DNA of 64,000 bases from Gemmatimonadota bacterium (GCA_040905425.1 JBBDRO010000103.1:13959-77958), one strand, 5' to 3'. Shown: positions 11,984 to 64,000, numbered from the stretch's first letter. The notes: generated by a model not told the origin, from the sequence alone. Translations and numbers: made by a program.

Positions 11984-11986
11984 CGC

Positions 11987-13159: not shown

Positions 13160-13164
13160 GCGGC

Positions 13165-14126: not shown

Positions 14127-14131
14127 CGCCC

Positions 14132-24204: not shown

Positions 24205-24228
24205 GATACTGAGAATCATTCTTGATTC
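24205..24228. promoter_or_regulatory. Fur-box-like operator upstream of the suf operon
   Basis: gatactgagaatcattctt matches the 19-bp Fur consensus GATAATGATAATCATTATC at 15/19 positions. It contains the perfect palindrome GAATCA-ttct-TGATTC (24213-24228), 37 nt upstream of sufC. A TTGACA lies at 24170-24175. Confidence 0.45.
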
Positions 24229-24264
24229 GTCCGCCGACTCTGGCCGGCGCGCGGTGAGGATACG

Positions 24265-25035: not shown

Positions 25036-25065
25036 GCCGAATCCCCGCAGGAAGGAACGAGACAT

Positions 25066-44185: not shown

Positions 44186-46201
44186 ATGGCTGACGCGACT
44201 GACAGATTCGGCAAGTTCGAGATCCGCGAAACGCTGGGTCAGGGCGGCTTCGGCCGCGTGTACCGTGCCTACGACACGGTGCTCCAGCGCGAGGTGGCCA
44301 TCAAGGTCTTCACGGTACACGATCCATCCATCAAGCAGCGGTTCCTGCGCGAAGCTCAGATAGCGGCCAGCCTGAGCCACCCCAACATTGTCGCGATATT
44401 TGATCTCGGCGAGCATGACGGCGACCCGTTCATCGTACAGGAATATCTGGCGGGTGAGGATCTGGAGACGATCATCCGCCGACGTGATGCAATCAGTCTG
44501 CTCACGAAGCTAAACTACCTAATCGGTATCGCCGACGGCATTGCCTTCGCCCACCGGCACGGCGTCATTCACCGTGACATCAAGCCGCAAAACGTGCGGA
44601 TCCTGACGGACGGCTCGGTACGGGTGCTCGATTTCGGGATCGCGAAGCGCGCTGTCGAGGACGCGACCGCACTGACGCAGCCGGGGTCCAGCGTCGGTAC
44701 TGCCGGTTACATGGCCCCCGAGCAGCTGCGCGGGGAACAGATCGATCACCGCGTCGACATCTTTTCCTTCGGCGCACTCGCGTTCCGGCTGCTCACACTC
44801 AGAAGGGCGTTCGAGGGCGATTCGCTGGCGAGCACGCTGTTCAAGATCGTACACGAGGAGGCAGTCTGGCCCTCTGGCGTACGTGAGACCTACCCACCAG
44901 ACCTCACCGAATGCATTGACCGCTGCCTCGCCAAGAAGGCGGAAGATCGGCCCAGCAGCTGCAAAGAAATCGTCGCCGCCTTGCGTGACGTTAAGCGGTC
45001 GGTCGGCTCGGGCGCTGAGGCCGCTGCCATGGTCACCGGCCAGGCTGCGGGCGCGGATCCAGATCAGCAAGCCACCCGGCTCGCGCCGGCCAGAGCTGCC
45101 GCCTATATCCCACCTACTGCACCGTTCAACCCACCGGCGGCAGTCGGCCCGCGGCAGCCCCGGCAGGCGGCATGGTGGAACGCAGCAGTAGGAAAGCGGT
45201 CTGGGGCCGCCGCGGCGGCGTTTATAATCATCGCGACCGCGGCGATGGCTTCACAATCGCTCTCCGGCCGCGCCGCGATCACCAATCCGGACGCGGCTGT
45301 GACCGACGCCACCGACTCGGCCGACGGCGTCGCTGCGCCCGGTCCCAGCGATTCTGCGGACCTCGGCGGTTCGGCGGGCGCACCGGCCGCGGCCACTGAT
45401 GCGTCCGCCGAAGAGCCCGACAACGTACCGAACCAGCCAACCGCGCCTACCCGTGATACCGCCGCGCCGGACCCGGCCGAGCAGCCCACCAACGAGAGAT
45501 CTGCCGCGTTTGCACTCCTCGTTGACGTCGCCAGCCTCGACGGTGGTCTGCAGAAGGGTCTGGCAGCCGCGCTTCGTGGTGACGATCGCATCGATCTGAC
45601 CGCCACGGGCAGTTCTGCCGACCTAGTTATCAGCCATCAGGGCGCTGGCTCGATGCTCCAGGTCAGGGGCAGCGACGGCACTCTGCGCGGAGCTGTCAGC
45701 AGCGCGGACCCGGTGCGCGCGGCCGAGTCGCTCGCCGGCACGATTCGACACGAACTCGGCGTTATGGGGTTGATGCGCCTGCAGAACCCTGCGCAATCGT
45801 TTGCCGTTACCATCGCCCTCGTGGGCGGCCGCCGCACGTTCAGGGTGGGTGATGCCATCGAATTCACGGTCCGCACGCAGCGGCCGGGCTATCTTACCCT
45901 GGTCGATATCGGTCCCACCGGACAGGTCTTCGTGCTGTATCCGAATCCCGATATGCGGTTGGGTGAGCTGCCGGCGGCGAGCGATATCCGTGTTCCGAGC
46001 GGCGCGCATCCGGGCTGGGTGGTCGCACCGCCGGTAGGCCGCGGTGCCGTGCGGGCGATCGTGACATCCAGCCCGCTGTTTACCGAGGGCAGTCAGCCGG
46101 GTAGCGCGGCTGCGGCTGCCCACATACACGAGCAGCTCGCCGCGAGCGCCGGGAGCAGTTGGGCAACGGCACTCGTGACGTACAGCATGACTGACCGCTG
46201 A
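44186..46201 (+). CDS. transmembrane Ser/Thr protein kinase with an extracytoplasmic DUF4384-like domain
   Basis: Intact Hanks motifs GQGGFGRVY, VAIKVF, REAQIAASLSHPNIV, HRDIKPQN, DFGIAK, GTAGYMAPEQ. TM segment AAAAAFIIIATAAMA, then a low-complexity Ala/Asp/Pro linker. C-terminal FRVGDAIEFTVRTQRPGYLTLVDIGPTGQVFVLYPN...GRGAVRAIVTS. Confidence 0.85.
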   Translation: MADATDRFGKFEIRETLGQGGFGRVYRAYDTVLQREVAIKVFTVHDPSIKQRFLREAQIAASLSHPNIVAIFDLGEHDGDPFIVQEYLAGEDLETIIRRRDAISLLTKLNYLIGIADGIAFAHRHGVIHRDIKPQNVRILTDGSVRVLDFGIAKRAVEDATALTQPGSSVGTAGYMAPEQLRGEQIDHRVDIFSFGALAFRLLTLRRAFEGDSLASTLFKIVHEEAVWPSGVRETYPPDLTECIDRCLAKKAEDRPSSCKEIVAALRDVKRSVGSGAEAAAMVTGQAAGADPDQQATRLAPARAAAYIPPTAPFNPPAAVGPRQPRQAAWWNAAVGKRSGAAAAAFIIIATAAMASQSLSGRAAITNPDAAVTDATDSADGVAAPGPSDSADLGGSAGAPAAATDASAEEPDNVPNQPTAPTRDTAAPDPAEQPTNERSAAFALLVDVASLDGGLQKGLAAALRGDDRIDLTATGSSADLVISHQGAGSMLQVRGSDGTLRGAVSSADPVRAAESLAGTIRHELGVMGLMRLQNPAQSFAVTIALVGGRRTFRVGDAIEFTVRTQRPGYLTLVDIGPTGQVFVLYPNPDMRLGELPAASDIRVPSGAHPGWVVAPPVGRGAVRAIVTSSPLFTEGSQPGSAAAAAHIHEQLAASAGSSWATALVTYSMTDR

Positions 46202-50576: not shown

Positions 50577-51470
50577 ATGAAGGAGCCCCAGCACCTCACC
50601 ACCCTTTTTGCCGACGTCAGCGGCAGCACCCGCCTCTTCGAGCAGCGCGGTGACCACGAAGCCCGCCGCATCATCGCCGCCGTCCTCGAGGCGCTGACGG
50701 AAGTGGTGCAGGGCTACAGCGGGCGCGTGGTTAAGACCATCGGGGACGAAGTGATGTGCACCTTCCCCGGCCCCACCCAGGGTCTGCTGGCCGCCTGCGA
50801 CATGCAGCAGCGCGTGGCGCGCGAGCCGGATTTCGCCCGGGACGACATCGGCATCCGGGTAGGTTTGCATCACGGCGCCACGCTCGTCGAGGATGGGGAT
50901 ATCTATGGCGACTCCGTGAACACGGCGGCCCGCATGGCCGCCCTGGCCAAGCGCGAGCAGATCATCACCACCACGGCCACCCTGGAAGGCGTCACGTCCG
51001 GTGTACATCTGAGCGCCCGCGCCCTAGGCCAGGTGCGCGTCCGCGGCAAGCAGCTCCCCGTGGAGGTGGTCGACATCATCTGGCAGGAAGACACATCGGA
51101 GGTCACAACGGTCCAGCAGGTGGTGCGGGTGGGTGGCGAGCCTGCGGATCTCCAGCTGCGTCTCCGCCACAGGGACACGGAGATTATCTTCACGCAGGAC
51201 TCGGAGCCCCTCTCCATAGGCCGGGACGCCGGGAATTCATTGACAGTCCCCACGGAATTGGCCAGCCGGAACCACGCCGTGTTGGAATGCAGGGGAGCCT
51301 ACTTCGCGCTGGTGGACCGCAGCACCAACGCCACCTTTGTGCGCTTCGGGGACGACGAAGAGCTCCGGGTGCATCGGGAGGAGATCCGGCTCCGTGGGTC
51401 GGGAACCATCAGCCTAGGACAGGTCGCGAGAAGCAACCCGGCGGATTTGGTATATTTTGAGTGCGCATAG
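50577..51470 (+). CDS. class III adenylate/guanylate cyclase fused to a C-terminal FHA domain
   Basis: Cyclase motifs: LFADVSGSTRLFE, VKTIGDEVMCTF, GLHHGATLVEDGDIYGDSVNTAARM. FHA: LSIGRDAGNSLTVPTELASRNHAVLE...LVDRSTNATFV. Confidence 0.85.
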   Translation: MKEPQHLTTLFADVSGSTRLFEQRGDHEARRIIAAVLEALTEVVQGYSGRVVKTIGDEVMCTFPGPTQGLLAACDMQQRVAREPDFARDDIGIRVGLHHGATLVEDGDIYGDSVNTAARMAALAKREQIITTTATLEGVTSGVHLSARALGQVRVRGKQLPVEVVDIIWQEDTSEVTTVQQVVRVGGEPADLQLRLRHRDTEIIFTQDSEPLSIGRDAGNSLTVPTELASRNHAVLECRGAYFALVDRSTNATFVRFGDDEELRVHREEIRLRGSGTISLGQVARSNPADLVYFECA

Positions 51471-51891: not shown

Positions 51892-54243
51892 CTAGTCGAT
51901 GACTTCCACCACCACTGGACCCGACGCCCTGGCCATACACGCCAGTCGGCAGGCGCCCGGCTCCAGCCCCTTCCTCTTGAGGGTCTTGAGCTCCTTTTCG
52001 GCGGGCTCGCTCAGGTGCTCGGCGCCCTCCAGAATGCGAATGGCATCGCAGCCGCACATGCCGATCCAGCATTCGTAGTCGATGTCCACCTCATTCTCGT
52101 CGGCCCATTCGAGCAACGTCTGGTCCTCGGCCAGAGGCCCTGCCAGTTCCTGTCCCTGAAAGGTGACGTGTGGACCGCTGGCCACTGGCGCCGCCACGGC
52201 CGCGTGGCTCTGCTGCTGGACCGCGGCGGCCGGCGGTGGCTCGAGCTTGGCTGCCGGCGGAGGGGGCGGTGAGGAAGTGGGGGCTACTGGCGGCTCCAAT
52301 GCGGGCGGCGCCACTGCTGGCATCGAAGTGGTCTTCTCGGGAAGGTCCTCACGTAGCCGCACCTCCAGCTGCTGACCGCCGATGCGGAAGACATCCCGGT
52401 GCCCGAGCTGCCGCTCCCCCTCGATCTTCAGGTAGGTGCCGTTTCGGCTTCCGAAGTCGTGAAGCTGAATTTCTCCGTCCTCGACCGAGAGGGAGAAATG
52501 GAATCGGGAGAGGGTGTGGTCGTCGTTGTCCAGGAGCACGTCGGGGTCTGACTTGCCGCCTGATCGTCCGAAGACGGTGGTGTCCTTCAATAGATACACG
52601 GCCACCTGTCGCCCGCGCGCGTCATAGTGGACGAGCTCGGGCGGCGCTCCGCGCACCTGGCGGGAGACCACGAGGATCTGCTGTCCGGCCCGGATCAGGT
52701 CGCTATGGCGAACGCTCACGGCACGATCGGGGAGCACCTTCTGGTAGGTACCTGCCCGGCTGCCGTCGTCCCGGAGGAAGTAGCCGCTGTCCCTCCGGGT
52801 GAGGGAGGCGTGGGCCTCCGAGAGCAGCGTGTCGTGTGGAAAGGCCAGGTCCGTACCTGTGCGCCCCAATGTGGTCATGCCACGGGGGTTCAGCCGAAAC
52901 TCCTCGGCTTCAACGCCGGCGGGCGTCAGCAGAACCAGGTATGCGCCCTCCGCGGCAGCGGCTCCCGGCTCCGGAGTTACGTCCGCCTCCGCCGCGGCGT
53001 CCTCCTCGTCTCCCCGCAGGCCTAGGACACCGCTTACCCGGCCGTCCGAGGTAGTGTCGCCGGCGAGGGGCTCCGCGTCGCGAATCACCACATTCACCTC
53101 GGCGCGGCCCTCGAGGCGCTGGTTGATGACCTCCGCCACGAACACTCCGTCGCGCAGACCGCTCTTGATGTTGCCCCGGTGCTTGACCTGGCGGAAGGTG
53201 TCGGGCGACCCGGCGAAATCGTCCGTCTCCAGGTAAGACTGGCTCAGCAGGTCTCCGATCACGTAGACGTTCGGCTGCTGCGTCTCCAGCAGTGGCGTCA
53301 CCGCCATGGTCTTCTTTCCCTTGGTGCCACCCGCCACCATGTCGACGCCTATGGTCGAGAGGAGGGCCTCGGGAATGTCCTCGCCGATGCAAGCGATACA
53401 CTGTGTCTTTGCGAACTCCAGGTGAAGCGTTTCCGGCGGCCGACCTGCGGGCGTCTTCCGGTCCACCCGTAGCGACAACACCTCCGTGCGGTCGGGAGTC
53501 GTAACAACGGCTACGGGCTCGCTCTCGGGGAAGTGCCGGATGTTGCCGTTGCCGATGTAAGCTTCGAAGAACTGCTCGGCGAGTGCCTTGGAGACCCGCG
53601 GCATCTTGGTGCCACGGTACGCCCAGTAGACCGGGCACTCGTCACCCGCGCCCACCTTTGCCCTCGAGATGGCCAGGACCGCCTCGGCGGCCGACGTGCC
53701 GCCGCCAACCACCAGCACCGGGCCCTTGGCATAACGATCCGCCTCATCGAGCCGATAGGCAATCCCGTCGGTGTTGCCGGGGATGTCGAACCGCCGGGGG
53801 ACTCCCCGTCCCAGCGCCACCACCACGTGCCGGGCTCGGAAGGTCACCTGTTCGCTCGCCTTGTGGTCCCACGCCACCACGTTCCACAGGTCATCGGCAC
53901 GCTCCATGGCGGTTAGTTCCACGCCGGTCCGAAAGGGTACGCCGAACGCACCGTAAAGCGCCTTCCAGGAACTGCACATCTCATCCTTGTCAATGGGTCC
54001 GAACTGGAGCGCTGCTATCATCTTGCCACCGGCCGGAAACCGCATGCGGTCCCCACCGCCGAAACTGGGGAGGATTAGCTTGTCAGACGGATAGTCCCGG
54101 ATTCGCTTCAGGATGTCATCGAAATCGATGACCAGAACCTCGAGCCGCAATTCCCTGGCGCGGAAAGCCGCGGCGGTGCCTGCGGGTCCGCCGCCGATCA
54201 CCAGGACGTCCAGTATCTCGGTGCCGCCGTTGATGTTGCTCAT
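51892..54243 (-). CDS. FAD/NAD(P)-binding oxidoreductase - FHA - FHA - 2Fe-2S ferredoxin-like fusion protein
   Basis: Dinucleotide motifs VLVIGGGPAGTAAAF, VLVVGGGTSAAEA, NVYVIGDL. FHA1: TTLGRTGTDLAFPHDTLLSEAHASL...SRAGTY. FHA2: TVFGRSGG...LSRFHFSLSVEDGEIQLHDFGSRNGTY. Then a Pro/Ala linker. C-terminal Cys cluster YECWIGMCGCDAIRI...GACRLACMA. Confidence 0.8.
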   Translation of the reverse strand: MSNINGGTEILDVLVIGGGPAGTAAAFRARELRLEVLVIDFDDILKRIRDYPSDKLILPSFGGGDRMRFPAGGKMIAALQFGPIDKDEMCSSWKALYGAFGVPFRTGVELTAMERADDLWNVVAWDHKASEQVTFRARHVVVALGRGVPRRFDIPGNTDGIAYRLDEADRYAKGPVLVVGGGTSAAEAVLAISRAKVGAGDECPVYWAYRGTKMPRVSKALAEQFFEAYIGNGNIRHFPESEPVAVVTTPDRTEVLSLRVDRKTPAGRPPETLHLEFAKTQCIACIGEDIPEALLSTIGVDMVAGGTKGKKTMAVTPLLETQQPNVYVIGDLLSQSYLETDDFAGSPDTFRQVKHRGNIKSGLRDGVFVAEVINQRLEGRAEVNVVIRDAEPLAGDTTSDGRVSGVLGLRGDEEDAAAEADVTPEPGAAAAEGAYLVLLTPAGVEAEEFRLNPRGMTTLGRTGTDLAFPHDTLLSEAHASLTRRDSGYFLRDDGSRAGTYQKVLPDRAVSVRHSDLIRAGQQILVVSRQVRGAPPELVHYDARGRQVAVYLLKDTTVFGRSGGKSDPDVLLDNDDHTLSRFHFSLSVEDGEIQLHDFGSRNGTYLKIEGERQLGHRDVFRIGGQQLEVRLREDLPEKTTSMPAVAPPALEPPVAPTSSPPPPPAAKLEPPPAAAVQQQSHAAVAAPVASGPHVTFQGQELAGPLAEDQTLLEWADENEVDIDYECWIGMCGCDAIRILEGAEHLSEPAEKELKTLKRKGLEPGACRLACMARASGPVVVEVID

Positions 54244-55214
54244 TGCTGGTGCAGTCTGAACTCGAGGTGCGGACCCAGTAGAAAACTGGCGCCCGGCGTA
54301 AGGGCCGCAGTTTCAATGCGGCGGTCGCCTATAAACGTGCCGTTGCGGGCACCCAGGTCCACCAGCTGAACGCCGTGCGCGCCCACGCGTACGATCGCGT
54401 GTTTGCGGGACAGCCACATGTCGGGATCCTCGATGCGGATATCGGCGTCAGAGCCCCGGCCGATGACGTTGTCACCCGGTGCGAGCGGAAACTGGAGAGG
54501 TCCGCCCGTGGGCAACAACACCACCAGTTCGTAGGCGGGCACGGCAGGCGCGACCCGGGTGGCGTCCTCACCACCGGGGGGCGCTGGCTTGGGCGCTCGG
54601 TGATCCACCGGCGGCGCAGGCGTCTTGCCGAGGTCGGGGAGCACGCCAAACCCGGCCATGTCCACGACAGTGTGCTGATTCCCGAGCGGAGCAGCGGGGG
54701 ATGGCTGCGCGGCCGCATCCGGCTCCTCCGGGCGGTTAGCGCCGCCCGCTGAGCCATTGCCCTCCGCCGGATCTTCCACACCCGGCGCAGGCGGCCCGAG
54801 ATCCGGCAGCGCCCCGAAGCCCATCATGTCCACCACCGTGTGCTCCGCGTCGGCTAACGCCTCGGGCGGCGAGGTGTCCGGTGGCGGAGAATCGGGCGGC
54901 CGGCGTACCATGCTGCGACTGAACACGAACTCCTGTCCGGCCACCTCGATGACATGCATCCGCTCCAGCGCCGCGCTGCTGCGGAGCGGCTGCCCGTCCA
55001 CCTGAGCGCTTCCACCTGCGGCCTCCTCCATCACGAAGCCCCCCTCCACGTGCCGGATGCGTGCGTGCACGGCGGCCAGGTCCGCGTCCTGTCCCACCGC
55101 TGGCCTGCCCGCCCCATCCACACCGAGGGCGGTGTTCCCAGCCAGTTCGAAGGTCGATCCAGCCAGCGCTCCTGTACGGCAGACCAGGCGTGCTGTGGGC
55201 GTCAGTGAAGTCAT
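54240..55214 (-). CDS. tandem FHA-domain protein
   Basis: The C-terminal FHA is canonical (NVIGRGSDADIRIEDPDMWLSRKHAIVRV...LGARNGTFI). The N-terminal FHA-like domain is degenerate (AAVHARIRHVEGGFVMEE). A Pro/Ala-rich linker carries a near-duplicated 'HTVVDM.GFG.LPDLG..PAP' segment. The stop overlaps the next start (ATGA). Confidence 0.8.
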   Translation of the reverse strand: MTSLTPTARLVCRTGALAGSTFELAGNTALGVDGAGRPAVGQDADLAAVHARIRHVEGGFVMEEAAGGSAQVDGQPLRSSAALERMHVIEVAGQEFVFSRSMVRRPPDSPPPDTSPPEALADAEHTVVDMMGFGALPDLGPPAPGVEDPAEGNGSAGGANRPEEPDAAAQPSPAAPLGNQHTVVDMAGFGVLPDLGKTPAPPVDHRAPKPAPPGGEDATRVAPAVPAYELVVLLPTGGPLQFPLAPGDNVIGRGSDADIRIEDPDMWLSRKHAIVRVGAHGVQLVDLGARNGTFIGDRRIETAALTPGASFLLGPHLEFRLHQQ

Positions 55215-55227
55215 GGCTACCTGGGGC

Positions 55228-56793
55228 TCAGCGGGACAGGGTGGACCAGTGCGACTTGTCCGGATGGAACTGATGACAGGACGTGCAGCTGGCGGGCGCA
55301 GTCCTGCTGCCGTGACACGAGCGGCAGCTCTCGATGGTGGGGAGATTCACGACCTCCGCCCGGTCCTGAGCAGCCGTTGCGTCCTCCCCCGACAAAAGCA
55401 GCTCGCGCGTGGGAATTACGTCGTGGCAGTCCATGCAGCGGGCGTGCACAACGTGCGCCCGGTGATCGAATTCCGCGCGCGCCAGACCGCCGTGGGCCGG
55501 TTGTTGCACGCGCCTGATGGTGGCGCGCTCCACCACGTGGCACTGGACGCACGGCTCGATGATGGCGCTGATGACGGCCTCGTATGCCGCTACGTCCATC
55601 GTCCCGGTAGCCACCCCGTCGGCCTCGTCGGCGGGGCCCACTCCGAAACGTGTGGCGTCCAGCGGCGCGTAGGGATCCTCCAGGCGGGCCTCCACGGCGG
55701 CCAGCAACTCCGACAGTTCGGCGATCTCGCGCTGCACCGCCGGCGAGGGATCGCCCCGCAGGCCCTCGATCTGCCTCGCCAGGGTGGCGATTGCCTCCCG
55801 GTGCAGCGCGCGGACCTGATCGGGCGGCACCTCCGCCGAGGTGTCCAGGAGGTCAGCCAGCTCAGCGCCCGGGTAGAGGTCGCCGCGCAACTTCCGGAGG
55901 TTGTGGAGGATCCACGGGTCGGCGTGGTAGACCGGCCGCTTCACCACGGAACCACCCAGATCGGTGAACTCACCGGCGTTCCAGAAGTATGCCCACTGGC
56001 TCCCGGGCTCACCGGCGCTGCGGATGTCACCCAACGTGGCAACGCCAGGGCCGCTGCCGGAGGCCACCCGGGCGGGCTCCGTGGCGTCGCTCCGAGAGAG
56101 ATGGCAGGCATCACAGTGCCGGTCGAAGGCCAGGGGCTGAAAGCCCTTCCCGTCCGCCTCAGGCGTGTGGCAGCTCAGGCACGCCGCCTCGGGCTCCACC
56201 AGTTCGCTTTCCGCCATCACCTCTCGCACGTGCTGCACGTGGGCGAATTTCAGATTGGCCACGCCCGCGTTGTCCTCCACGGCAAAATCGAATTCCGGGT
56301 GGTCCTTTTCAAAGGAATTCACCTCGTGGCAGGATACGCACCGGGCATCGGCCACTTCCTGCAGGGAGGCCTCTCTGCCCTGGTGCTCACGGTGACAGGT
56401 GCCGCAAGCCACCTCGTGGACATCGGCAGCCGAACGGTCCGCCTCCCCGGAGCGGTACATATAGTGGCGCGCGAACGTGTAGATCCCGAGCTCGCCGCCG
56501 GACTGCTGATGACAGCTCAGGCATTTGGCGTCGGCCGTGCCTTGAAGCGGCGTGTGGCAAGCGGCGCAGTCCCCGTCGAAGATAGCGTGACTGTCCGTGA
56601 GCGGCGCGCCGGCAATGGCCGTCCCCCGGCCCAGGAAAGCGCTGGCGAGCAGGAGCACGGCCAGGACGAGGCCAGCCAGCCCTCCGCATGCAAAGAGACG
56701 GCTGCGGCTCGTGAGCCGCGTGTACCGGTCCGCCACCGGGAGTCGGTGTGGCGAGAAGAATCCCTTCTCGAAGCGACGATCTTCCGAGCCCAC
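55228..56793 (-). CDS. membrane-anchored decaheme c-type cytochrome
   Basis: Ten CxxCH motifs read in the translation: CAACH, CLSCH, CGTCH, CVSCH, CLSCH, CDACH, then CVQCH, CMDCH, CRSCH, CTSCH. N-terminal TM/signal anchor LAGLVLAVLLLASAFL. GTG start 15 nt after the upstream stop. Confidence 0.85.
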   Translation of the reverse strand: MGSEDRRFEKGFFSPHRLPVADRYTRLTSRSRLFACGGLAGLVLAVLLLASAFLGRGTAIAGAPLTDSHAIFDGDCAACHTPLQGTADAKCLSCHQQSGGELGIYTFARHYMYRSGEADRSAADVHEVACGTCHREHQGREASLQEVADARCVSCHEVNSFEKDHPEFDFAVEDNAGVANLKFAHVQHVREVMAESELVEPEAACLSCHTPEADGKGFQPLAFDRHCDACHLSRSDATEPARVASGSGPGVATLGDIRSAGEPGSQWAYFWNAGEFTDLGGSVVKRPVYHADPWILHNLRKLRGDLYPGAELADLLDTSAEVPPDQVRALHREAIATLARQIEGLRGDPSPAVQREIAELSELLAAVEARLEDPYAPLDATRFGVGPADEADGVATGTMDVAAYEAVISAIIEPCVQCHVVERATIRRVQQPAHGGLARAEFDHRAHVVHARCMDCHDVIPTRELLLSGEDATAAQDRAEVVNLPTIESCRSCHGSRTAPASCTSCHQFHPDKSHWSTLSR

Positions 56794-56808: not shown

Positions 56809-57651
56809 CTAGAAGTAGAGAATGAAGAACACGTGCAGCACCACCAACGCCAGCAGCGCCACAGCCGCGGGCAGGTGGAGCACGAGCCAGCCGCGCAGCA
56901 CGCGCTGCAGCGTATAGTGGACGTCCATCTCGTGCTTGGTGACGCGCAGCCCCTGCACCTCGTCCACCACCGCCGCGTCTTCCGCCTCCAGGGTGCACTT
57001 GAGCAGCTCGACTTCCCGTGTGCCGCGCAGGTGGGCGGCGGGGCTCCGGAACAGTTCACGATAGGTGACCCGCGGCCCCGCCATCACCGGCGCCACGCGC
57101 TTCTGGAACCAGCTTCGCACGCGTGGGTCTGATTCCGCCACCTTGGCCTCCGCGCGGGCGCGCAACTCGTCGACCAGACCGGGGATCCGCTCCAGGTGGA
57201 CCTCGAACGAGGAGGTGGTGTTCAGCACCTGCGGAACTGCCCGCTGCAGAAAGAGGCCCACCGCACCCGTCAGGACCACCCAGAGGCTCAGCAGCCAGAG
57301 CCCCGCCACCATTCCGCCCGAGGGCAGCCCGAAACCGGTGTGGTAGAGGAAGAGCAGGAAAAACAGGGTGCCCCCCCACAGGTGTACCTGCAAGTACGTC
57401 CGCGTGGGGCCGAGGCGCCGCACGGCGGGCATGGCGCGGCGGGCCGAGTAGAGCATTACTGCCAGGAGCGACAGCGCCGCCGCCACGCCGAGCCCGAGCC
57501 CGAGCGGGGAACTGGGTGCCACACCACCGGTGGCCATGCCTACCATGAATGCCACTGTAGCAGCAACGGCACCCAGGGTACTGAGCAGGGGAACAGGCCC
57601 GGAACGCACCACGCCTCCGGCACCGCGCAGGCGCTGAACCAGAGCCGTCAT
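56809..57651 (-). CDS. integral membrane protein with two His-N13-His pairs (candidate di-heme b transmembrane electron carrier)
   Basis: ATG 57651 overlaps the upstream stop (ATGA). About 5 TM helices. H90/H104 lie in YLQVHLWGGTLFFLLFLYHTG, and H260/H274 in WLVLHLPAAVALLALVVLHVFF. A soluble segment of about 115 aa sits between TM4 and TM5. The function is inference only. Confidence 0.6.
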   Translation of the reverse strand: MTALVQRLRGAGGVVRSGPVPLLSTLGAVAATVAFMVGMATGGVAPSSPLGLGLGVAAALSLLAVMLYSARRAMPAVRRLGPTRTYLQVHLWGGTLFFLLFLYHTGFGLPSGGMVAGLWLLSLWVVLTGAVGLFLQRAVPQVLNTTSSFEVHLERIPGLVDELRARAEAKVAESDPRVRSWFQKRVAPVMAGPRVTYRELFRSPAAHLRGTREVELLKCTLEAEDAAVVDEVQGLRVTKHEMDVHYTLQRVLRGWLVLHLPAAVALLALVVLHVFFILYF

Positions 57652-59246
57652 ACCGGCATCTCCGCTGCACGCTTCGCCTGCCGCAGTAGGTCGAACTCTT
57701 CGGTGCCGGAAACGCGGTGCGCGGCGCTGTGCGGGCAGCTGGCCACGCAGGCCGGTCCCTCCGGCGCCTGGTAGCAAAGATCGCACTTGCTGGCCACCGC
57801 CCGGGGCTGCCCACGCAAATAGCTGGGCACCGCATCGGGGCCCCACGAGGTGTCCAGGTCGTGCATGACGATGGAATCATACGGGCAGTTCTGCTCGCAG
57901 GCGCCGCAACCGATGCAGATGGCGGGATCGATTTCCACCACCGCACCCACGTTCAGCCGGCGGATGGCGCCCGTGGGGCACCCCACCAGGCACGTGGGAT
58001 CCTGACAGTGATAGCAGGAGCGGGCCACCATGAAGCCGTCGTAGACCTCACCTTCGCGCACGAACCGAGGGCGGCCGCCATGGGTGCTGGCGCACCCGCG
58101 CACGCAATCGTCGCAGCGGGTGCAGGCCTCGAGGTCAATGACCAGCACACTGTTCGCCTGCGCAATGCCCTTGGCGAGCGTGAAGTCGAGCAGATCCGAA
58201 CGGGCCAGGTCAGAGCGGGTGGCACCCATGATCTTGATCCGCTCCATGGCAGTGCCCCACAGGCGTTGCTCCAGTTCCGGCTGCGCGGCCAGGGCGTCCA
58301 GGAAGGCGTCCCGGCCGATGCGGACCAGCTCCGAGTTGCCTACTGAGGAGGCGCTCACCTGCCACACGCCGGAGCCGTCCACCATGAGTTCGGACTCCCC
58401 GAGCGAATCACCCTTGCTGAGGTACGATACGGCTACCTCGGCGGCGCCCAGCGCCTGTGAGAGCCGCAGGCAACCGGAGCGTACCAGGACGAAGTGCTCC
58501 GTGGGCTCGCCCTCCCGGACGGCCACCTCCCCCGGCTCGCACGACACCAGTTCGGCCGCGGCCACCAGCCGCTCAAGCGTTTCCGGCGTGCAGCCGTGCA
58601 GCAGCGGGGTGCCGGCCAGGTGCTGTCGCAGCATGCGGGCCTTGTAGAGCTCGTCCAGCCGTATCCGGAGCGCGCGTGATTTACGGCGCAGCTTGCGGAG
58701 CGCGGGCAGGCGGATCTGCAGTAGCGTACAGGCGCTCGCCGTGCGGGCGGTGGCGGATTGCGGCCAACCGTTCATGGCGCCGATCTCGCCAAACAGTTCG
58801 CCAGGTCCCAAGCGCATGCACTCGTCCGCAGCCACGTCGAAGTCCATGGACGCCAGCATCACCGTTCCGCCGCTATGGCTCTCCCGATCGGCTTCGTAGG
58901 GGGCTTCACCCGCCACCGCGCCTGCGCCGCTTCCGAAGATGGGCTGAACCGCGCTCTCCGGGCGCGCCAGGAAGACCTCCACTTCGCCGCTCACCACCAG
59001 GAATGCCAGGTCCAGGTAGCTGCCCTGCTCGAAGATCACCGCCCCCGCGTTCCACTCCGCCAGCGATAGGTCGGGGCTCAACTCCTTCAGGAGGTCGTCA
59101 TCGAATTCCTGCAAGATGCCGATCTTTTTGAGCTGCGCGGGGGTGGGCAGGCTGGAGATGCTACGGATCCCTGTGTGCTCGCCGAAGGAGGACCAGCGGT
59201 CGCCGTGCTGGCGACTCATCATGACCAGGGTCCCTGATGCTTCCAT
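57648..59246 (-). CDS. two cyclic-nucleotide-binding domains fused to a 4x[4Fe-4S] DmsB/NrfC-like ferredoxin
   Basis: cNMP-binding 1: GAVIFEQGSYLDLAFLVVSGEVEV...GELFGEIGAMNGWPQSATARTA. cNMP-binding 2: GEVAVREGEPTEHFVLVRSGCLRL...GDSLGESELM. Four Cys clusters: CTRCDDCVRGC, CYHCQDPTCLVGCP, CIGCGACEQNCP, CDLCYQAPEGPACVASCP. No twin-arginine or signal sequence. Confidence 0.85.
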   Translation of the reverse strand: MEASGTLVMMSRQHGDRWSSFGEHTGIRSISSLPTPAQLKKIGILQEFDDDLLKELSPDLSLAEWNAGAVIFEQGSYLDLAFLVVSGEVEVFLARPESAVQPIFGSGAGAVAGEAPYEADRESHSGGTVMLASMDFDVAADECMRLGPGELFGEIGAMNGWPQSATARTASACTLLQIRLPALRKLRRKSRALRIRLDELYKARMLRQHLAGTPLLHGCTPETLERLVAAAELVSCEPGEVAVREGEPTEHFVLVRSGCLRLSQALGAAEVAVSYLSKGDSLGESELMVDGSGVWQVSASSVGNSELVRIGRDAFLDALAAQPELEQRLWGTAMERIKIMGATRSDLARSDLLDFTLAKGIAQANSVLVIDLEACTRCDDCVRGCASTHGGRPRFVREGEVYDGFMVARSCYHCQDPTCLVGCPTGAIRRLNVGAVVEIDPAICIGCGACEQNCPYDSIVMHDLDTSWGPDAVPSYLRGQPRAVASKCDLCYQAPEGPACVASCPHSAAHRVSGTEEFDLLRQAKRAAEMPV

Positions 59247-59258: not shown

Positions 59259-61334
59259 TCAATTGCCGCGGCCGATAGCCGCGTAGATGCGCTCCAGGCG
59301 CTGCTTCACCAGGAGCAGGACTTCCTCGGGTGTCATGGAGCCCGGCGCAACGTCAATCGGCTCCAGATCCAGGCTGCCGGATACGGTGCGTGCCGGTGCC
59401 ATCCCCGGCATAGGGGGCGGCGCCGCAAAACCGGCGCTCCCTCCGGTCGACCCGCCCGGGCTGCTGCCCACCGCGGTGAGAGGACGGCTCGGCGGCAGCG
59501 GCTCCACCACCTCCACCTGAGGTATGGGCCGGTCGGCCACGGCGCTCGTGAACGCCGCATTCAGCGCTCCCTCGGCCACCTCCGGATACGCGGCCCCGCG
59601 TTTCCCCCGCTCCAACTGCGGCTTCTTGCCTGGCCAGTGGGCTATGCTCCGATTGGCGGTGCCGATGTCATAGCCGCTACCCGAGGGGTGTCCGGCCGCG
59701 AGCAGCCGCTCATCACTGACGTGGTGACAGCCCGCGCACGTCCGTGCGCGCTCGTCAGCCTTCTTGAGGGCACGCATTCCCGCCTGTGGATTGCCCCCCT
59801 CCTGGTGCGGCTCCAGGAAGGCGGCGCCCGCGCCGTGGCAGCTCTCGCAGCTGACACCCGGCTCCACCACTCGCATGGACCGCTCATCCACGGTACCGTG
59901 GCAGCTCATGCAGATCTGATCCCCCCGCCCCATGGCGGCCGGGCCGATGCCGTACAACGTGGCGATCTTCCGTGCTCGAGGATCGTCGCCGAGGAGGCGG
60001 CGGCCAGTCTGCTGATGGGGGTCCCCGTACCACCACTCCTCCGCTTCGCCATGGCAGGAGGCGCACTCGCCGACGCCCACGGTGCCGTTCTGCGCTGGGC
60101 TGTGCCACGCCGGCTGGCGCCGGATCTCTCCCGGCATGTCGGGCGGCGGAGTGACCGCTGGGGGGCTGGCGCCCGGGGCTGCTGGCGCGGTCCCCCCGTC
60201 ACCCCCTGGCCCGGCGCTGGGTTCCACGGTGGTGCCGCTGCCCACCGAGCCGGTGGCCGCGGCCACCGGCGCAACAACGGGCGCTCCCGCGATCACCGTA
60301 TCCAGCACCGCCAGGACCGCCGCGTCCGCGGAGCGCGCGAACTGCTGCCCTATTCCACGAATCCTCTCCGCCGCGGTCTCCAGCTCCGCCCGGTTGCTGG
60401 CCACCAGGCGCAGGTCCTTCCCGGTTCTCAGCACCTCCTCCACAGCCGGCACGGAAGCGACGGTCGCCACCTCCTCCAGCGCCCGATACGCACCCTGCGC
60501 CGCGCGTTCCATGGATCGCGCGTAGCGCCCCTCCGCGGTGGCGCCTGCCAGGCCACGGAGCGCGTATTCGTACGCCAGGATCCGACCGGTGACGAACATC
60601 ATGCGATTTCGCTCGGGGGTGAGTTCCCGGTTCACACCCTCGGTGCCGTGCAGGAAGTTGTGCCGGACCTGCTCCACCCTGGCCACCAGGTCGAAGTCCG
60701 TGGTGCCCGTCCGGTGTTCACCGCGGTTGACAAGCTCTTCTTGCGGCACGGTGTGGCATTCAAAACAGTTGGCCACCACGGCGTAGATGTCCGCCGACGG
60801 CGGCAGCATGCCCTCCGCCGCGGCGGCGGCGATGCGCTGTTCCCTGGCCGCGGCCGATTCGTCGCCGCTGGACGGCAGCTTATTGTGGACATTCAGCCAT
60901 CCCTGGGCCGGGCCATGGCACGACTCGCACGAAACGCCGGCGACCGCCTTCCGGTCCGGCCCGACCGTGTAGTGGCACCGCATGCAGACCGCTTCCTGGC
61001 GCTTCGTGACCCGCAGGTTCATGCGCTGCAGAATGGCCTTTGCGTTCTCGTCCTTGTGCAGCGTCTCGTACCCCTGCGCGTGCTTCGTCTCCTGCCAGAC
61101 CTCCCATTCGTCAGTATGGCAGACGCCGCACGGCTCGTAGCCCTTGGCGTTCTCCACCACTACGCGGTCGGGATCGATGCGGAGGAAGGGCGAGTCGGAA
61201 AAGTCGGCCGGCTCCTGGGCCAGCAGGGCGTACGCCCCGGCCAGTCCAAGCGTGCCGAGCCCCGCCAGCCCGGCGGCGAGCCGGCGGCGGGGCTGGCGCA
61301 ATTGCCGGTAGCGGAACGACTTCAACGGTGGCAT
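59259..61334 (-). CDS. octaheme c-type cytochrome (two tetraheme modules)
   Basis: Signal/anchor LAGLGTLGLAGAYALLAQ. CxxCH x8: CGVCH, CMRCH, CESCH, CFECH, then CASCH, CMSCH, CESCH, CAGCH. The two halves are visibly paralogous. Confidence 0.85.
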   Translation of the reverse strand: MPPLKSFRYRQLRQPRRRLAAGLAGLGTLGLAGAYALLAQEPADFSDSPFLRIDPDRVVVENAKGYEPCGVCHTDEWEVWQETKHAQGYETLHKDENAKAILQRMNLRVTKRQEAVCMRCHYTVGPDRKAVAGVSCESCHGPAQGWLNVHNKLPSSGDESAAAREQRIAAAAAEGMLPPSADIYAVVANCFECHTVPQEELVNRGEHRTGTTDFDLVARVEQVRHNFLHGTEGVNRELTPERNRMMFVTGRILAYEYALRGLAGATAEGRYARSMERAAQGAYRALEEVATVASVPAVEEVLRTGKDLRLVASNRAELETAAERIRGIGQQFARSADAAVLAVLDTVIAGAPVVAPVAAATGSVGSGTTVEPSAGPGGDGGTAPAAPGASPPAVTPPPDMPGEIRRQPAWHSPAQNGTVGVGECASCHGEAEEWWYGDPHQQTGRRLLGDDPRARKIATLYGIGPAAMGRGDQICMSCHGTVDERSMRVVEPGVSCESCHGAGAAFLEPHQEGGNPQAGMRALKKADERARTCAGCHHVSDERLLAAGHPSGSGYDIGTANRSIAHWPGKKPQLERGKRGAAYPEVAEGALNAAFTSAVADRPIPQVEVVEPLPPSRPLTAVGSSPGGSTGGSAGFAAPPPMPGMAPARTVSGSLDLEPIDVAPGSMTPEEVLLLVKQRLERIYAAIGRGN

Positions 61335-61367
61335 GCGGGCACTACAGACTCCGGGGAAGCACCACGA

Positions 61368-62876
61368 CTAGAACTTGTGCCGGAGTTCGAGCCGGACGCC
61401 GCTGATGGTCCCCAGATCTTTGCGATGGCCGTACATGCCGTCGGCCCGCAGGATAATGGCGTTGGTCAGCGTACGCTGCGCCCGCACGCCGAACGCTACC
61501 TGTTCGCCTGGCAGTCCGGGGCTTTCCACGAGCGGATAGCTGCCCGCCACTTCCACCACGAGTTGCCGGTCGAAGCTGGAGCCGAGCAGGTTCAGGCCGA
61601 GCGCTCCACCTACCGCGTCCTGCGCGGTCGCGGTCAGCGCGGGGAGCGCCGTGACCGCATCCGGTTCGAAGCTGAGTCCGGTGTTGCGGAGGACGCCGCC
61701 TGCTCCCGGATCCCGGGCCGCGGAGACAGGCCGGTCGAACCCGGCGAAGAGGTTCAGGTACGGTACCACCGTGGAGGGTCGCGAGGTGATGAGGGAGTTC
61801 TCCAGCAGCAACAGGTGCCCGCCGGGGGCAAGCGCACTGCCTGCGCTGACGGCGCCGACGTAGCGCAAGGAATTGGAGATGAACGTGCCGTAGCGCTTCG
61901 AAAAGGAGACGGCATAGGAGTGGTAGGACTGATCGGCCTCGGAGTCGTCACCCACGTAGGCGTACCCCGCCTCCACATAGCCACCGTAAGCCTCGATAAA
62001 CGCGTTCACGCCCGCCAGCTGACCCGTCTCCCCGATTGCCGGAGAGGCGCCATGGGACACCTTGTCGAAGCCGACGAAGAAGCTGATGTCGTAGTTCGAC
62101 CAGTCGAGCGCCGCCGAGTTGCGGGCTGGAATCGTGAACGCGGCGCCGGTGAAGGCGTCTTCGAGCCAGGTCCCGTTGTGGAAGACCAGAGGCATGAGCC
62201 CCGCTGCCACCGGCAGGTCGAAGGGTGCCGCCCGGCCAGCGAGTCCGCCGACGATGGCGCCCAGGTCTCCCTCGAAGAAGAGCGCCACCGGGATGGCCGA
62301 GAAGTTCTGGTCGAATGTGCTCGTGTCCGCGGCGAAATCGAAGCGGGTCAGGACACCGTCGTTCTCCAGCGGCCGGAATGTGGCATGGATACGCTCGGTT
62401 GCCGTGAGCTTCAGATCCACGTCCAGGTTCAGACGCGCCGCCACCGTCCCGCCCTCGTCGTCATCCACGCTATTGAAGCCGCTGGCCGCCCGCAGGTCAC
62501 CGTATAACAGGAGCTGCGGGATCAGCAGGTTCGTGCCGCCCAGCGGGGTCCCGCCCCGCCGCAGCGGCCCTGCGCCGTACATGTCGCTGCCGAGTTCCAG
62601 CAGCGGCCGCTGGGTGGGATTCAGGTGCTTGGCTCCGTAGATGTCGAGCTGCGCCTGATAGTCGTACATGGTGTCGCTGTAGACCGGATCGGGCCCGAAG
62701 GCTTCAGCCGTATGCGGCACCACACGCACCCGCGGGTCCGTCTGCTGGGCGGTGGCATCGCCGGCCAGCAGGACGCTGGCCACCGCCATTGCGCCCAGCG
62801 GAATCGACCGGCCGTTGCGCGTCGACGTGCGGGTCGCGGCCCCAGCCCGTGCCTGGGAGGAGAGTTGGCTTGTCAT
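61368..62876 (-). CDS. outer-membrane porin-like beta-barrel protein
   Basis: ATG 62876 overlaps the upstream stop (TGATG). Signal peptide GAMAVASVLLAGDATAQ. Long alternating-polarity beta-strand pattern rich in Gly and aromatics. C-terminal ...GVRLELRHKF (terminal Phe, an OMP signature). Confidence 0.7.
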   Translation of the reverse strand: MTSQLSSQARAGAATRTSTRNGRSIPLGAMAVASVLLAGDATAQQTDPRVRVVPHTAEAFGPDPVYSDTMYDYQAQLDIYGAKHLNPTQRPLLELGSDMYGAGPLRRGGTPLGGTNLLIPQLLLYGDLRAASGFNSVDDDEGGTVAARLNLDVDLKLTATERIHATFRPLENDGVLTRFDFAADTSTFDQNFSAIPVALFFEGDLGAIVGGLAGRAAPFDLPVAAGLMPLVFHNGTWLEDAFTGAAFTIPARNSAALDWSNYDISFFVGFDKVSHGASPAIGETGQLAGVNAFIEAYGGYVEAGYAYVGDDSEADQSYHSYAVSFSKRYGTFISNSLRYVGAVSAGSALAPGGHLLLLENSLITSRPSTVVPYLNLFAGFDRPVSAARDPGAGGVLRNTGLSFEPDAVTALPALTATAQDAVGGALGLNLLGSSFDRQLVVEVAGSYPLVESPGLPGEQVAFGVRAQRTLTNAIILRADGMYGHRKDLGTISGVRLELRHKF

Positions 62877-64000
62877 CAGCGGACCTCGAACTCGACGGTG
62901 TACGGATGGATGTCCAGCATCCACTCGTTCATGGCTCGCTCCATCTCCTCCGTGGCGCCCACGAACTTCATGAAGTAGATGGGCTCGGCGCGGCTGCGAA
63001 GGCGCACCGCCAGCCGGTAGGTACCGGGCCTGGTGAGCAGGTCGCCCGGAACGGTGTACGTTGCGTCACGACTGGAAAGCGGCGGCAGCGAGCGGCTCTC
63101 CATGCGCACGCCCGGCGGATGGTTCAGCACCGAAACCGGTTGGCCCGCCGGGCGGATGAACGGGAGCTGATCCACGTCCAGGTTGATGGGCAGATACATC
63201 TCGCGGTCGGTACCCTTGACGTTCTGGGTGAGGAACTTCGTCTGCAGATTGAAGAGCTGGTCGTCGTGCGGGATACGGCCCGCCAGCACGTCCAGGGAAT
63301 GCAGGTCCGCCATGTCGCCGTTGCTGTCCAGGTAACCCGACTCCCAGATCCGCTGTCCGTCAGGGTCGATTAGCGCCACATTCAGCCACAGTTCCGGCTG
63401 CGCGCCCAGGGAGCCGGAGGGAAGGTTGTGCCCCGAGTTGGTGTTGGTAAGCGTGTAATGGAACTTCAGCGCCCCCCCGCGCCGGGGGTCACCGCTGAAG
63501 AACGGTCCGTCCAGCTTCGAACCGTTCTCCATCACCTGCCGGCGCAGTTCCCGCTTTTCCTCCAGCTTGGCCAGGTTCTGCTGGACGATGTCGCGGGCCT
63601 CGTAGCGGTCGTCCGGCTCGGCCCACATCTCGGGGAAGTTCACCTGCACCTGCCCGCCGGCCAGTCGGTCCTCGAACGCGTCCGTACCCCATCCCGCACG
63701 GAAATCGAAGCGCAGCCACTCGTCGATGGTCCAGCGCTCCGCGGCCGGATTGTGGGGAAAGACACCCGGATGCGCGCTGGCGTAACCGGGCCCGTAGAAG
63801 GTGTGGTTCGTGTGCTTCCGGGTCGGGTTGATGGGGACCCCCGCAAGCACCGCCGACGGCGCAGTCGCGTAGCCGTCCGGCTGCCCCGGCGTCTGGCCCA
63901 TGTGGCAGTCCTGGCAAGAGATCCCCGCGTCGGCGGCAGGGGAGGCCCGGTACTGGTCCCAGACCACCTCCAGCTTGATGCCGGGGTGCACTGCTACCTG
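62876..64000 (-). CDS. multiheme-cytochrome family protein, 5' end outside the window (C-terminal 374 aa seen)
   Basis: The frame stays open to the window edge; the listed GTG 63991 is not a real start. One CxxCH is visible (ISCQDCHMG). A large heme-free C-terminal domain follows (TNTNSGHNLPSGSLGAQPELWLNVALIDPDGQRIWESGY...). Confidence 0.7.
   Translation of the reverse strand, partial: QVAVHPGIKLEVVWDQYRASPAADAGISCQDCHMGQTPGQPDGYATAPSAVLAGVPINPTRKHTNHTFYGPGYASAHPGVFPHNPAAERWTIDEWLRFDFRAGWGTDAFEDRLAGGQVQVNFPEMWAEPDDRYEARDIVQQNLAKLEEKRELRRQVMENGSKLDGPFFSGDPRRGGALKFHYTLTNTNSGHNLPSGSLGAQPELWLNVALIDPDGQRIWESGYLDSNGDMADLHSLDVLAGRIPHDDQLFNLQTKFLTQNVKGTDREMYLPINLDVDQLPFIRPAGQPVSVLNHPPGVRMESRSLPPLSSRDATYTVPGDLLTRPGTYRLAVRLRSRAEPIYFMKFVGATEEMERAMNEWMLDIHPYTVEFEVR

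Follow-up and report, generated by a model that had tools for sequence, protein, structure and literature searches.

An open reading frame encoding 783 amino acids was analysed on a stretch of 64,000 nucleotides from a Gemmatimonadota bacterium (GCA_040905425.1, JBBDRO010000103.1:13959-77958; the whole stretch is referred to as the window). The encoded protein consists of a flavoprotein, two FHA domains, a linker and a ferredoxin-like domain. Based on its domain identities, folds, residue conservation, gene linkage and natural fusions, which were observed directly, we propose with moderate confidence that the protein is the cytoplasmic electron-input module of a Ptd-type trans-envelope conduit, fed by reduced nicotinamide adenine dinucleotide or its phosphate (NAD(P)H) and docked or gated through phosphothreonine (pThr). 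An initial annotation of the window had treated it as a stand-alone enzyme. This view had to be abandoned, as the gene is the last, translationally coupled member of an operon coding for a porin, multihaem cytochromes, an iron-sulfur (Fe-S) protein and a membrane protein.

NCBI holds an identical protein as 'MAG: FAD-dependent oxidoreductase [Gemmatimonadota bacterium]' (MAG, metagenome-assembled genome; FAD, flavin adenine dinucleotide). More than 837 homologues share the same full-length architecture, which excludes a chance pattern. The protein is a real and widespread enzyme, in which two FHA modules connect an NAD(P)H-type flavoprotein to an iron-sulfur-type domain. Existing automatic annotations already read 'thioredoxin reductase/FHA/ferredoxin', so the architecture alone is no discovery. 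New here are the Cys3Asp signature of the C-terminal domain, the obligatory linkage to conduit genes, the linkage to PP2C and kinase genes, the evidence from fusions and a threonine motif in a partner protein.

Gene linkage and natural fusions

Every gene from position 64000 down to position 51892 of the window lies on the minus strand (Table 1), and the ATG of the target gene, which is the last one, overlaps the stop codon of the upstream FHA-protein gene (caATGAgc). A genome scan with one genome per species found a relative in 187 genomes, of which the best 80 were taken. These 80 are from Gemmatimonadota, Rhodothermales, Bacteroidota, Ignavibacteriota/Chlorobi, Zixibacteria, KSB1, Acidobacteriota, Nitrospirota, Eisenbacteria and one member of Chromatiales. 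Upstream sequence of 6 kb or more was available at 55 loci, which cover about ten phyla. Among these, a decahaem cytochrome and the membrane protein were each encoded upstream on the same strand in 54; the protein with cyclic nucleotide monophosphate (cNMP)-binding and Fe-S domains and the FHA protein were each found in 50. Of the 50 loci for which 10 kb of upstream sequence was available, 43 encode an octahaem cytochrome, 24 the porin and 20 the outer cytochrome. The cofactor motifs are kept as well, with ten CxxCH motifs in 57 of 60 decahaem orthologues and four Cys motifs in 52 of 54 orthologues of the Fe-S protein. Synteny in 50-54 of 55 loci indicates that the association with cytochrome genes is no coincidence.

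A HMMER scan with residues 1-390 against 1.84 billion representatives delimited a compact target family (78 matches at E ≤ 1e-30, about 40 full-length representatives). A 2x[4Fe-4S] domain is always present at the N-terminus of the nearest other clade, which is 28-40% identical and has the Y-P-x-x-K motif in common with the target family. Among its members are fusions to the very parts that surround the target gene in the window. In P0348 (Planctomycetota, 763 aa), a Fer4 domain and the flavoprotein precede a C-terminal domain that is homologous to the membrane protein and keeps both H-x13-H pairs, while P0311 (967 aa) joins a PtdE-like cNMP/Fe-S part, the flavoprotein and a PtdF-like membrane domain. 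Cytochromes are attached in two further proteins: P0315 (1015 aa) is composed of two FHA domains, a transmembrane (TM) helix, seven c-type haem sites, a second TM helix, Fer4 and the flavoprotein, and P0335 (711 aa) of four c-type haem sites, a TM helix, Fer4 and the flavoprotein. At locus L036, the cNMP-Fe-S protein (PtdE) is fused to the membrane protein (PtdF) in 828 aa.

Separate genes for Fer4-flavoproteins (L089, L090) adjoin a gene whose product is homologous to the membrane protein (profile E 1e-19 to 1e-18), and their neighbours also include multihaem cytochromes and proteins without Pfam match that end in F (putative porins). Fusions and neighbourhoods together are strong indirect evidence that this flavoprotein clade passes electrons, via the attached Fe-S domain, to or from the membrane protein and the cytochromes. 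They provide equally strong indirect evidence that the C-terminal ferredoxin-like domain of the target plays the role of the N-terminal [4Fe-4S] domain of the sister clade.

A further locus (L091) contains fusion-type relatives and membrane-protein homologues. Stand-alone relatives of about 370 aa also exist (P0276, P0286, P0297); their contigs, like those of P0303 and P0317, are too short for gene context.

Domains of the protein

Residue conservation was determined from an alignment of 117 full-length homologues with 48-69% identity, complemented by 80 species-level genomes for positions of the C-terminal domain. The AlphaFold2 model calculated from the 117-sequence alignment has a mean predicted local distance difference test (pLDDT) score of 86.9 and a predicted template modelling (pTM) score of 0.82; only the two linkers (residues 395-430 and 640-688) are disordered. 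Pfam, the model and Foldseek uphold the annotated succession of a flavoprotein oxidoreductase, two FHA domains and a ferredoxin-like end.

The ferredoxin-like end (residues 691-783) matches Pfam Fer2 (PF00111) at residues 696-773 with 27.8 bits, above the gathering cutoff of 21, and residues 690-783 are modelled as a beta-grasp-like fold with pLDDT values >90. Both the hidden Markov model and the structure prediction are hence in line with the annotation of this region. Its closest sequence matches in the PDB are [2Fe-2S] ferredoxins, headed by 9i2a ('Ferredoxin-4', E 4.5e-7), to whose C-x4-C-x2-C...C ligands 1 to 4 the residues C725, C730, D733 and C769 align. The four-Cys plant-type pattern is thus broken at position three. 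This position is Asp in 117 of 117 proteins and in 80 of 80 genomes, while Cys stands at the other three without exception; the residues that never vary in the domain are C725, G728, C730, G731, D733, G740, R766, A768 and C769, the last three within the conserved segment R766-L767-A768-C769.

The initial annotation had read the cysteines as C-x4-C-x1-C...C-x3-C. The underlying segments CWIGMCGC (from residue 725) and CRLAC (from 765) do exist, but the additional cysteines turned out to be quirks of the lineage, and the family signature is C-x4-C-x2-D...C. Position 732 is Ser in 49 and Cys in 40 of the 117 proteins, followed by Ala, Leu and Tyr, with Cys in 6 of 78 genomes; position 765 is Cys in 91, Tyr in 17 and then Phe or His, with Cys in 50 of 78 genomes. 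Given the invariance of the signature, a Cys3Asp [2Fe-2S] site is the most economical reading, and the domain most likely holds a [2Fe-2S] cluster with the ligands Cys725, Cys730, Asp733 and Cys769. The same local motif C-x4-C-G-x-D occurs in Escherichia coli SdhB (SCREGVCGSDGLNM...LAC), in which Asp63 is a cluster ligand; beyond the motif there is no homology (E 0.046). An Asp ligand of a [2Fe-2S] cluster is also reported for the small subunit of NfnI (PMC10724689).

The flavoprotein domain has a thioredoxin reductase (TrxR)-like fold with two dinucleotide-binding parts and matches Pfam Pyr_redox_2 at residues 12-333 (E 4.6e-20). All motifs named in the initial annotation were found again, namely GGGPAG (residues 17-22), GGGTSAAE (180-187) and YVIGD (327-331). 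A family motif, RDYPSDKLILPSFGGGD, occupies residues 49-65. Both dinucleotide motifs, the GD motif and an insert, R47-I-R-x-Y-x3-K-x-I-L-P-x2-G-G, are invariant across the family. A patch of the form YRG...K..R (residues 209-216) after the second Rossmann strand hints at NADPH as the preferred nucleotide.

The top PDB sequence match of this domain is 7a76 (E 6.5e-10). When the model was compared with Foldseek, YpdA/Bdr came out best (E 2e-22; the top matches span 2e-22 to 1e-17), followed by the TrxR-type ferredoxin-NADP+ reductases (FNRs) 6gar, 3ab1, 3lzw, 2zbw and 5ygq (E about 1e-18 to 1e-20). Low-Mr thioredoxin reductases are also among the matches, and the identity to the structural relatives is 15-21%. 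The domain has the attributes of a TrxR-type FNR, i.e. a TrxR-like fold, FAD and NAD(P)H motifs and no disulfide; no FNR-specific curated model was among the matches, and no curated model reached its own cutoff for the domain.

Two more specific assignments were rejected, because the required cysteines are missing and the scores fall below the curated cutoffs. For a thioredoxin reductase, a redox-active C-x2-C would be expected before GGGxSA, where residues 91-202 contain no Cys, and the model TIGR01292 matches residues 12-40 only (24.9 bits, cutoff 343). For the bacillithiol disulfide reductase YpdA/Bdr, the model TIGR04018 scores 63.7 bits where 339.9 are required, and Ala replaces the active-site Cys of GGGPCG. 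A C-I-A-C motif within 'QCIACIGED' lies off the position of the TrxR disulfide, on a predicted strand at the hinge of the NAD(P)H domain with the FAD domain; C285 occurs in 117 of 117 members, whereas C282 is kept in 103 of 117 members and is Ala in 10.

The two stretches between flavoprotein and ferredoxin-like domain match Pfam FHA (PF00498; E 2.4e-18, 66.7 bits, cutoff 20.7), and both are modelled as all-beta regions with pLDDT >90, so that the folding expected of them by the initial annotation is borne out. FHA2 was rightly called canonical, with GR at residue 559, SRFH at 579 and NGT at 601. Its pThr-binding residues are kept across the family: G559, R560, R580 and N601 are each found in 117 of 117 members, H582 in 113 and S579 in 111, with Thr in the other six. 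OdhI is among its best curated matches (E 3.3e-11). The description of FHA1 as near-canonical holds for the sequence itself (GR at 460, SEAH at 475, RAGT), but family-wide the domain is only semi-canonical, with R461 in 87, S475 in 96 and H478 in 116 of 117 members, and Thr, Ser or Ala at the position of the canonical Asn.

The 60-residue Pro/Ala linker behind FHA2 (residues 631-690, 50% Pro plus Ala) was likewise found as annotated. It opens with a Ser/Thr cluster, P-E-K-T-T-S (residues 635-640), of moderate conservation. The GarA/OdhI proteins use an ETTS motif as a self-binding switch. It is speculative, by analogy, that the E-K-T-T-S segment might be bound by the protein's own FHA domain.

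Phospho-signalling genes and motifs

A link between the protein and Ser/Thr phospho-signalling, suggested in the initial annotation from the FHA domains, is much strengthened by the pThr-binding residues of FHA2 and by the genes behind the orthologues. Genes within 3 kb were counted in the 59 loci whose downstream sequence extends to 3 kb or more. A PP2C phosphatase gene follows on the same strand in 16 of these loci and a Ser/Thr kinase gene in 17; one or both stand directly after the orthologue in 21 of 59 loci on the same strand and in 30 of 59 on either strand. The downstream gene frequently abuts or overlaps the stop codon of the orthologue.

In one lineage, which includes Ca. Coneutiohabitans thermophilus, the orthologue and a PP2C gene form an isolated pair (loci L055 and L043). 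Cytochrome, Fe-S and membrane-protein genes are absent within 10 kb of this pair, whose neighbours code for NamZ, a SpoIIE-type phosphatase and a pseudouridine synthase.

In the window, the annotated positions of a complete kinase gene, a partial kinase reading frame and a PP2C gene were confirmed (Table 1). The kinase and the phosphatase are candidate regulators, the latter by analogy to other genomes only. The non-kinase domain of the window kinases (DUF4384) is unlike that of the PEGA-type kinases adjoining orthologues.

A possible target of such kinases was found in the FHA partner, whose gene precedes that of the target. Its linker carries two copies of T-V-V-D-M-x-G-F-G-x-L-P at residues 126-137 and 182-193 (TVVDMMGFGALP and TVVDMAGFGVLP), each lying within the repeat (E/Q)-H-T-V-V-D-M-x-G-F-G-x-L-P-D-L-G. 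Among 62 partner orthologues, the core T-phi-phi-[D/E]-x(2-9)-phi-P was counted 50 times, compared to 5.3 ± 2.3 times in shuffled sequences (maximum 12), and the motif is present in 33 of the 62 orthologues, across phyla. Some FHA domains prefer pT-x-x-D, a preference into which the acidic residue at position +3 fits. The linker motif is a candidate for a kinase target and FHA docking site.

Operon and other genes of the window

The features of the window are compiled in Table 1.

Table 1 Positions of the target gene, its domains and sites, and other features in the window
Feature	Position	Strand	Details
Target open reading frame	51892-54243	-	783 aa, ATG start
TrxR-like FAD/NAD(P)H domain	53074-54219	-	Residues 9-390; two dinucleotide-binding parts; Pfam, PDB match, Foldseek, conservation
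C-I-A-C motif	53387-53398	-	Residues 282-285
FHA1, semi-canonical	52654-52941	-	Residues 435-530; G460, R461, S475, H478; Ala497 replaces canonical Asn
FHA2, canonical	52354-52638	-	Residues 536-630; G559, R560, S579, R580, H582, N601, G602
Pro/Ala linker, disordered	52174-52353	-	Residues 631-690
Plant-type-ferredoxin-like beta-grasp domain	51895-52173	-	Residues 691-783
Candidate cluster ligands C725, C730, D733	52045-52071	-	Codons
Candidate cluster ligand C769	51937-51939	-	Codon
FHA partner gene	54240-55214	-	324 aa; C-terminal canonical FHA, N-terminal FHA-like region
Linker repeats of FHA partner	54636-54671, 54804-54839	-	
Decahaem cytochrome c (PtdG-like)	55228-56793	-	One N-terminal TM helix, conserved cytoplasmic tail of about 30 aa
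Five-helix membrane protein (PtdF-like)	56809-57651	-	280 aa; four invariant His, two H-x13-H
Cytoplasmic PtdE-like protein	57648-59246	-	532 aa; three cNMP-binding domains, HycB/NrfC/NarH-like four-[4Fe-4S] domain
Octahaem cytochrome c	59259-61334	-	691 aa
Secreted protein, probable outer-membrane porin (PtdB-like)	61368-62924	-	518 aa; no Pfam match; ends ...RHKF
Cytochrome, C-terminal part (PtdA-like)	62876-64000	-	Cut by window end
Class III nucleotidyl (adenylate/guanylate) cyclase-FHA fusion	50577-51470	+	Convergent, 421 bp from target stop codon
Ser/Thr kinase with C-terminal DUF4384	44186-46201	+	Candidate regulator
PP2C phosphatase	41884-42873	+	Candidate regulator
Partial kinase open reading frame	40714-41340	+	

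The H-x13-H pairs of the membrane protein are in register in TM3 and TM5, and according to the positive-inside rule one pair is located at each membrane face. Based on this His pattern only, the protein would bind two b-type haems. The family (about 280 aa; homologues in L001-L083 and L089-L091; model pLDDT 83.6) probably represents a new dihaem electron-carrying fold. A profile search with the membrane protein matched close family members only, with no proteobacterial PtdF among the matches.

The first ~30 residues of the decahaem protein contain a motif, K-G-[T/S/F]-F-[G/S]-x2-L-P-[V/I]-A-x2-Y, that is conserved in many phyla and is a possible docking site for cytoplasmic partners. The cyclase-FHA gene, which also lies beside the orthologue in locus L005, could supply the cNMP that the Fe-S protein senses.

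Downstream of the target gene, a search for sigma-70-like promoters and intrinsic terminators came out negative, a result that is uninformative in Gemmatimonadota. The kinase gene is followed, up to position 49171 on the plus strand, by a gene for a caspase-like (Peptidase_C14/CHAT) protein of 975 aa with Big_2 and PD40 beta-propeller repeats. A defence system was considered and rejected, as PADLOC gave no match for the target or the FHA partner, and the matches of kinase, caspase and cyclase are to generic domains. The G + C content of the window is 0.75-0.77 at positions 8001-16000, compared to 0.63 at 24001-26000 and at 46-50 kb.

Proposed mechanism and alternative explanations

In the mechanism that we propose, the TrxR-like domain would bind FAD and oxidise NAD(P)H. 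Electrons would pass from FAD to the protein's own C-terminal Cys3Asp cluster, enter the cNMP-binding protein with its four [4Fe-4S] clusters, cross the inner membrane via two b-haems of the 280-aa membrane protein, and continue through the deca- and octahaem cytochromes to the porin-cytochrome at the outer membrane. The FHA pair, placed between reductase and ferredoxin arm, could make docking or intramolecular transfer depend on whether Ser/Thr residues are phosphorylated. FHA2 would bind pThr, as would FHA1 to a weaker degree, and candidate sites are the T-phi-phi-D/E repeats of the FHA partner's linker and the protein's own E-K-T-T-S segment. A kinase would write and a PP2C phosphatase erase the mark, so that the input module is docked or released, or the ferredoxin arm freed or blocked. 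Binding of cNMP to the Fe-S protein may provide a second control. We infer the cofactor content, the direction of flow, the phospho-dependence and the identity of the phospho-sites from the patterns described above.

A more far-reaching version, which we put forward only tentatively, is an 'electron valve', a conduit that functions in the manner of an NADPH oxidase although its parts are unrelated. It would lead electrons from cytoplasmic NAD(P)H through both membranes to an acceptor outside the cell, bypass the quinone pool and open only when a kinase has made pThr docking sites for the flavoprotein and a cyclic nucleotide is bound to the Fe-S protein.

Several observations weigh against the proposal. 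The best 80 genomes are all metagenome-assembled or otherwise uncultured ones. The window kinases and PP2C, encoded on the opposite strand at a distance of 6-11 kb, are only candidate partners, and about half of the partner orthologues are without the linker motif as defined. FHA1 has no canonical Asn and in a quarter of the members no Arg, and the FHA regions also match a phospho-independent YscD-type model (Yop-YscD_cpl). For the membrane protein, the profile search gave no PDB sequence match, a Foldseek search of its AlphaFold model against the PDB found nothing below E 0.4, the Pfam match to Ferric_reduct is insignificant (E 0.5), and the protein has no Pfam family. Finally, moving electrons outward from NAD(P)H would cost the cell membrane potential. 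Outward flow in NADPH oxidases does depolarise the membrane, and such an effect would explain the heavy regulation of the system.

A redox sensor or scaffold is a rather unlikely alternative. Flavin and Fe-S cluster would then read the ratio of NAD(P)H to NAD(P)+ or oxygen, the FHA domains would relay the signal to a network of kinase, phosphatase and cyclase, and the bulk of electrons would enter elsewhere, e.g. as quinol via the membrane protein. The four FHA domains in two genes, the cyclase-FHA gene and the cNMP domains of the Fe-S protein suit this idea, as do the isolated pairs of orthologue and PP2C in L055 and L043, and an Asp-ligated cluster may be labile or conformationally responsive (PMC10724689). 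The sister clade, however, is hard-wired by fusion to Fe-S, membrane and cytochrome domains with no signalling domain, which looks like an electron path, and both dinucleotide sites of the target are invariant.

We regard it as unlikely that the FHA domains are phospho-independent structural adaptors of the YscD/EssC type, bolting the flavoprotein to its partners in the absence of kinase regulation. Besides the match of both regions to Yop-YscD_cpl, the degeneration of FHA1 in many members and the presence of a kinase or PP2C gene in only 36-51% of loci would agree with such a role. The conservation of the pThr-contacting residues of FHA2 in 111-117 of 117 members, however, is unexpected if phospho-peptides are not bound. 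Adjacency to PP2C or kinase genes, often with an overlapping stop codon, is moreover far above that of a random 3-kb window, and the Thr-centred motif is conserved in the linker of the partner.

It is improbable that the conduit runs in reverse, importing electrons from an extracellular or periplasmic donor so that the flavoprotein reduces NAD(P)+ in an electron-uptake or lithotrophic metabolism. TrxR-type FNRs are reversible enzymes, which counts in favour of this direction. Further support comes from related haem, Fe-S and membrane modules in Fe(II) oxidisers (Ferrigenium; preprint 10.64898/2026.01.22.701106) and from Ptd genes reported in nitrite oxidisers (preprint 10.1101/2023.11.21.568154). 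Inward transfer to -320 mV against the membrane potential, however, requires a donor of very low potential, and the hosts are mostly of heterotroph type (Rhodothermales, Bacteroidota, Gemmatimonadota, Thermoanaerobaculia). The potentials of known Cys3Asp [2Fe-2S] clusters (SdhB, NfnI small subunit) are high, which favours oxidation of NAD(P)H.

A soluble reductase of disulfides or low-molecular-weight thiols of the YpdA/TrxR type, with a cluster-free beta-grasp domain and located beside cytochrome genes by chance, is very unlikely: YpdA/Bdr gives the best NCBIfam and PDB matches, C285 of the hinge C-x2-C is invariant and the C-terminal domain has only three invariant Cys, but the YpdA score and active site, the position of CIAC and the loss of C282 in 10 members, the synteny and the invariant Asp exactly at the missing ligand position all speak against it.

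Significance

To our knowledge, the routes described so far for extracellular electron transfer take their electrons from the quinol pool, and their control is mainly transcriptional. If the proposed function is true, an NAD(P)H-fed conduit switched by pThr and cyclic nucleotides would represent a new principle by which bacteria control respiration and balance their redox state. Extracellular electron transfer would here, for the first time, be under post-translational control by pThr recognition inside the redox enzyme itself, involving a Cys3Asp cluster in a ferredoxin fold. Such a conduit would also provide a function for the unexplained ptd-type clusters of sediments, soils, saline waters and oxygen-deficient zones in about ten phyla. 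Experimental handles are offered by the FHA-gated fusion of reductase and ferredoxin, the universal Asp ligand in a ferredoxin fold and the probable dihaem membrane family without structural relative. A switchable electron outlet could be of use in bio-electrochemical engineering.

Comparison with known systems

The closest counterpart is the ptdABCDEFG cluster of a penta-, tetra- and decahaem porin-cytochrome system, whose function 'remains completely unknown' according to its authors (preprint 10.1101/2023.11.21.568154). No other paper using the name ptd was found in the literature. The parts of the window match the ptd operon in the same order, by architecture only. Shared are the NrfA-like cytochrome, the porin, the periplasmic multihaem cytochrome, the cNMP-binding 4Fe-4S protein, the 'ferric-reductase-like' membrane protein and the decahaem cytochrome. 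In the ptd operon, the flavoprotein PtdC is encoded between porin and tetrahaem cytochrome, whereas the window has a 33-bp gap at this place (61334 to 61368) and carries an FHA protein and the flavoprotein-FHA-FHA-ferredoxin fusion at the 3' end of the operon. The middle cytochrome has eight haems in the window compared to four in ptd, and the preprint mentions no FHA, kinase or phosphatase (10.1101/2023.11.21.568154).

A nonahaem cytochrome cluster of Ferrigenium straubiae, whose function is stated to be unknown (preprint 10.64898/2026.01.22.701106), resembles the window by description in its cytosolic [4Fe-4S] protein, unannotated 5-TM protein, single-TM multihaem cytochrome and cytoplasmic-side FHA domain. 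There, the FHA domain is fused to the cytoplasmic end of the cytochrome, and a flavoprotein-FHA-ferredoxin component is not described. MtrCAB and Pcc have in common with the window the porin and the multihaem cytochromes across the outer membrane, but known Mtr/Pcc systems draw on the quinol pool and not directly on NAD(P)H.

With regard to its flavoprotein part, the target shares the two-dinucleotide fold without TrxR disulfide with TrxR-type FNRs (Bacillus subtilis YumC, Chlorobium tepidum FNR, Bacillus cereus FNR1/2) and with YpdA/Bdr. TrxR-type FNRs exchange electrons with a ferredoxin, which in the target is attached. The target is distinguished from these enzymes by its low identity to them, its own insert R-I-R-D-Y-P-x-D-K-L-I-L-P-x-F-G-G-G-D, the lack of the YpdA Cys, and the FHA-FHA and ferredoxin domains in cis. 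Plant-type [2Fe-2S] ferredoxins (PF00111) agree with its C-terminal domain in the beta-grasp fold and in ligands 1, 2 and 4, which are Cys at canonical spacing. The target family, with its predicted cluster, differs by the invariant Asp as third ligand, which is unusual in PF00111.

The regulatory part recalls GarA/OdhI, since FHA2 likewise matches OdhI and a Thr-Thr-Ser cluster lies beside the FHA domain. GarA/OdhI is a separate inhibitor, whereas in the target the FHA domain is built into the enzyme, and the motif is C-terminal to it and moderately conserved. The eukaryotic NOX enzymes are gated by phosphorylation. With the NOX/FRE systems, the target would share the logic of electron flow from NAD(P)H via flavin and two membrane haems at paired His to the outside. 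The membrane protein of the window has no significant match to the ferric reductase domain, and the target differs from NOX/FRE by the unrelated TrxR-like (not FNR-like) fold of its flavoprotein and by an extra Fe-S relay.

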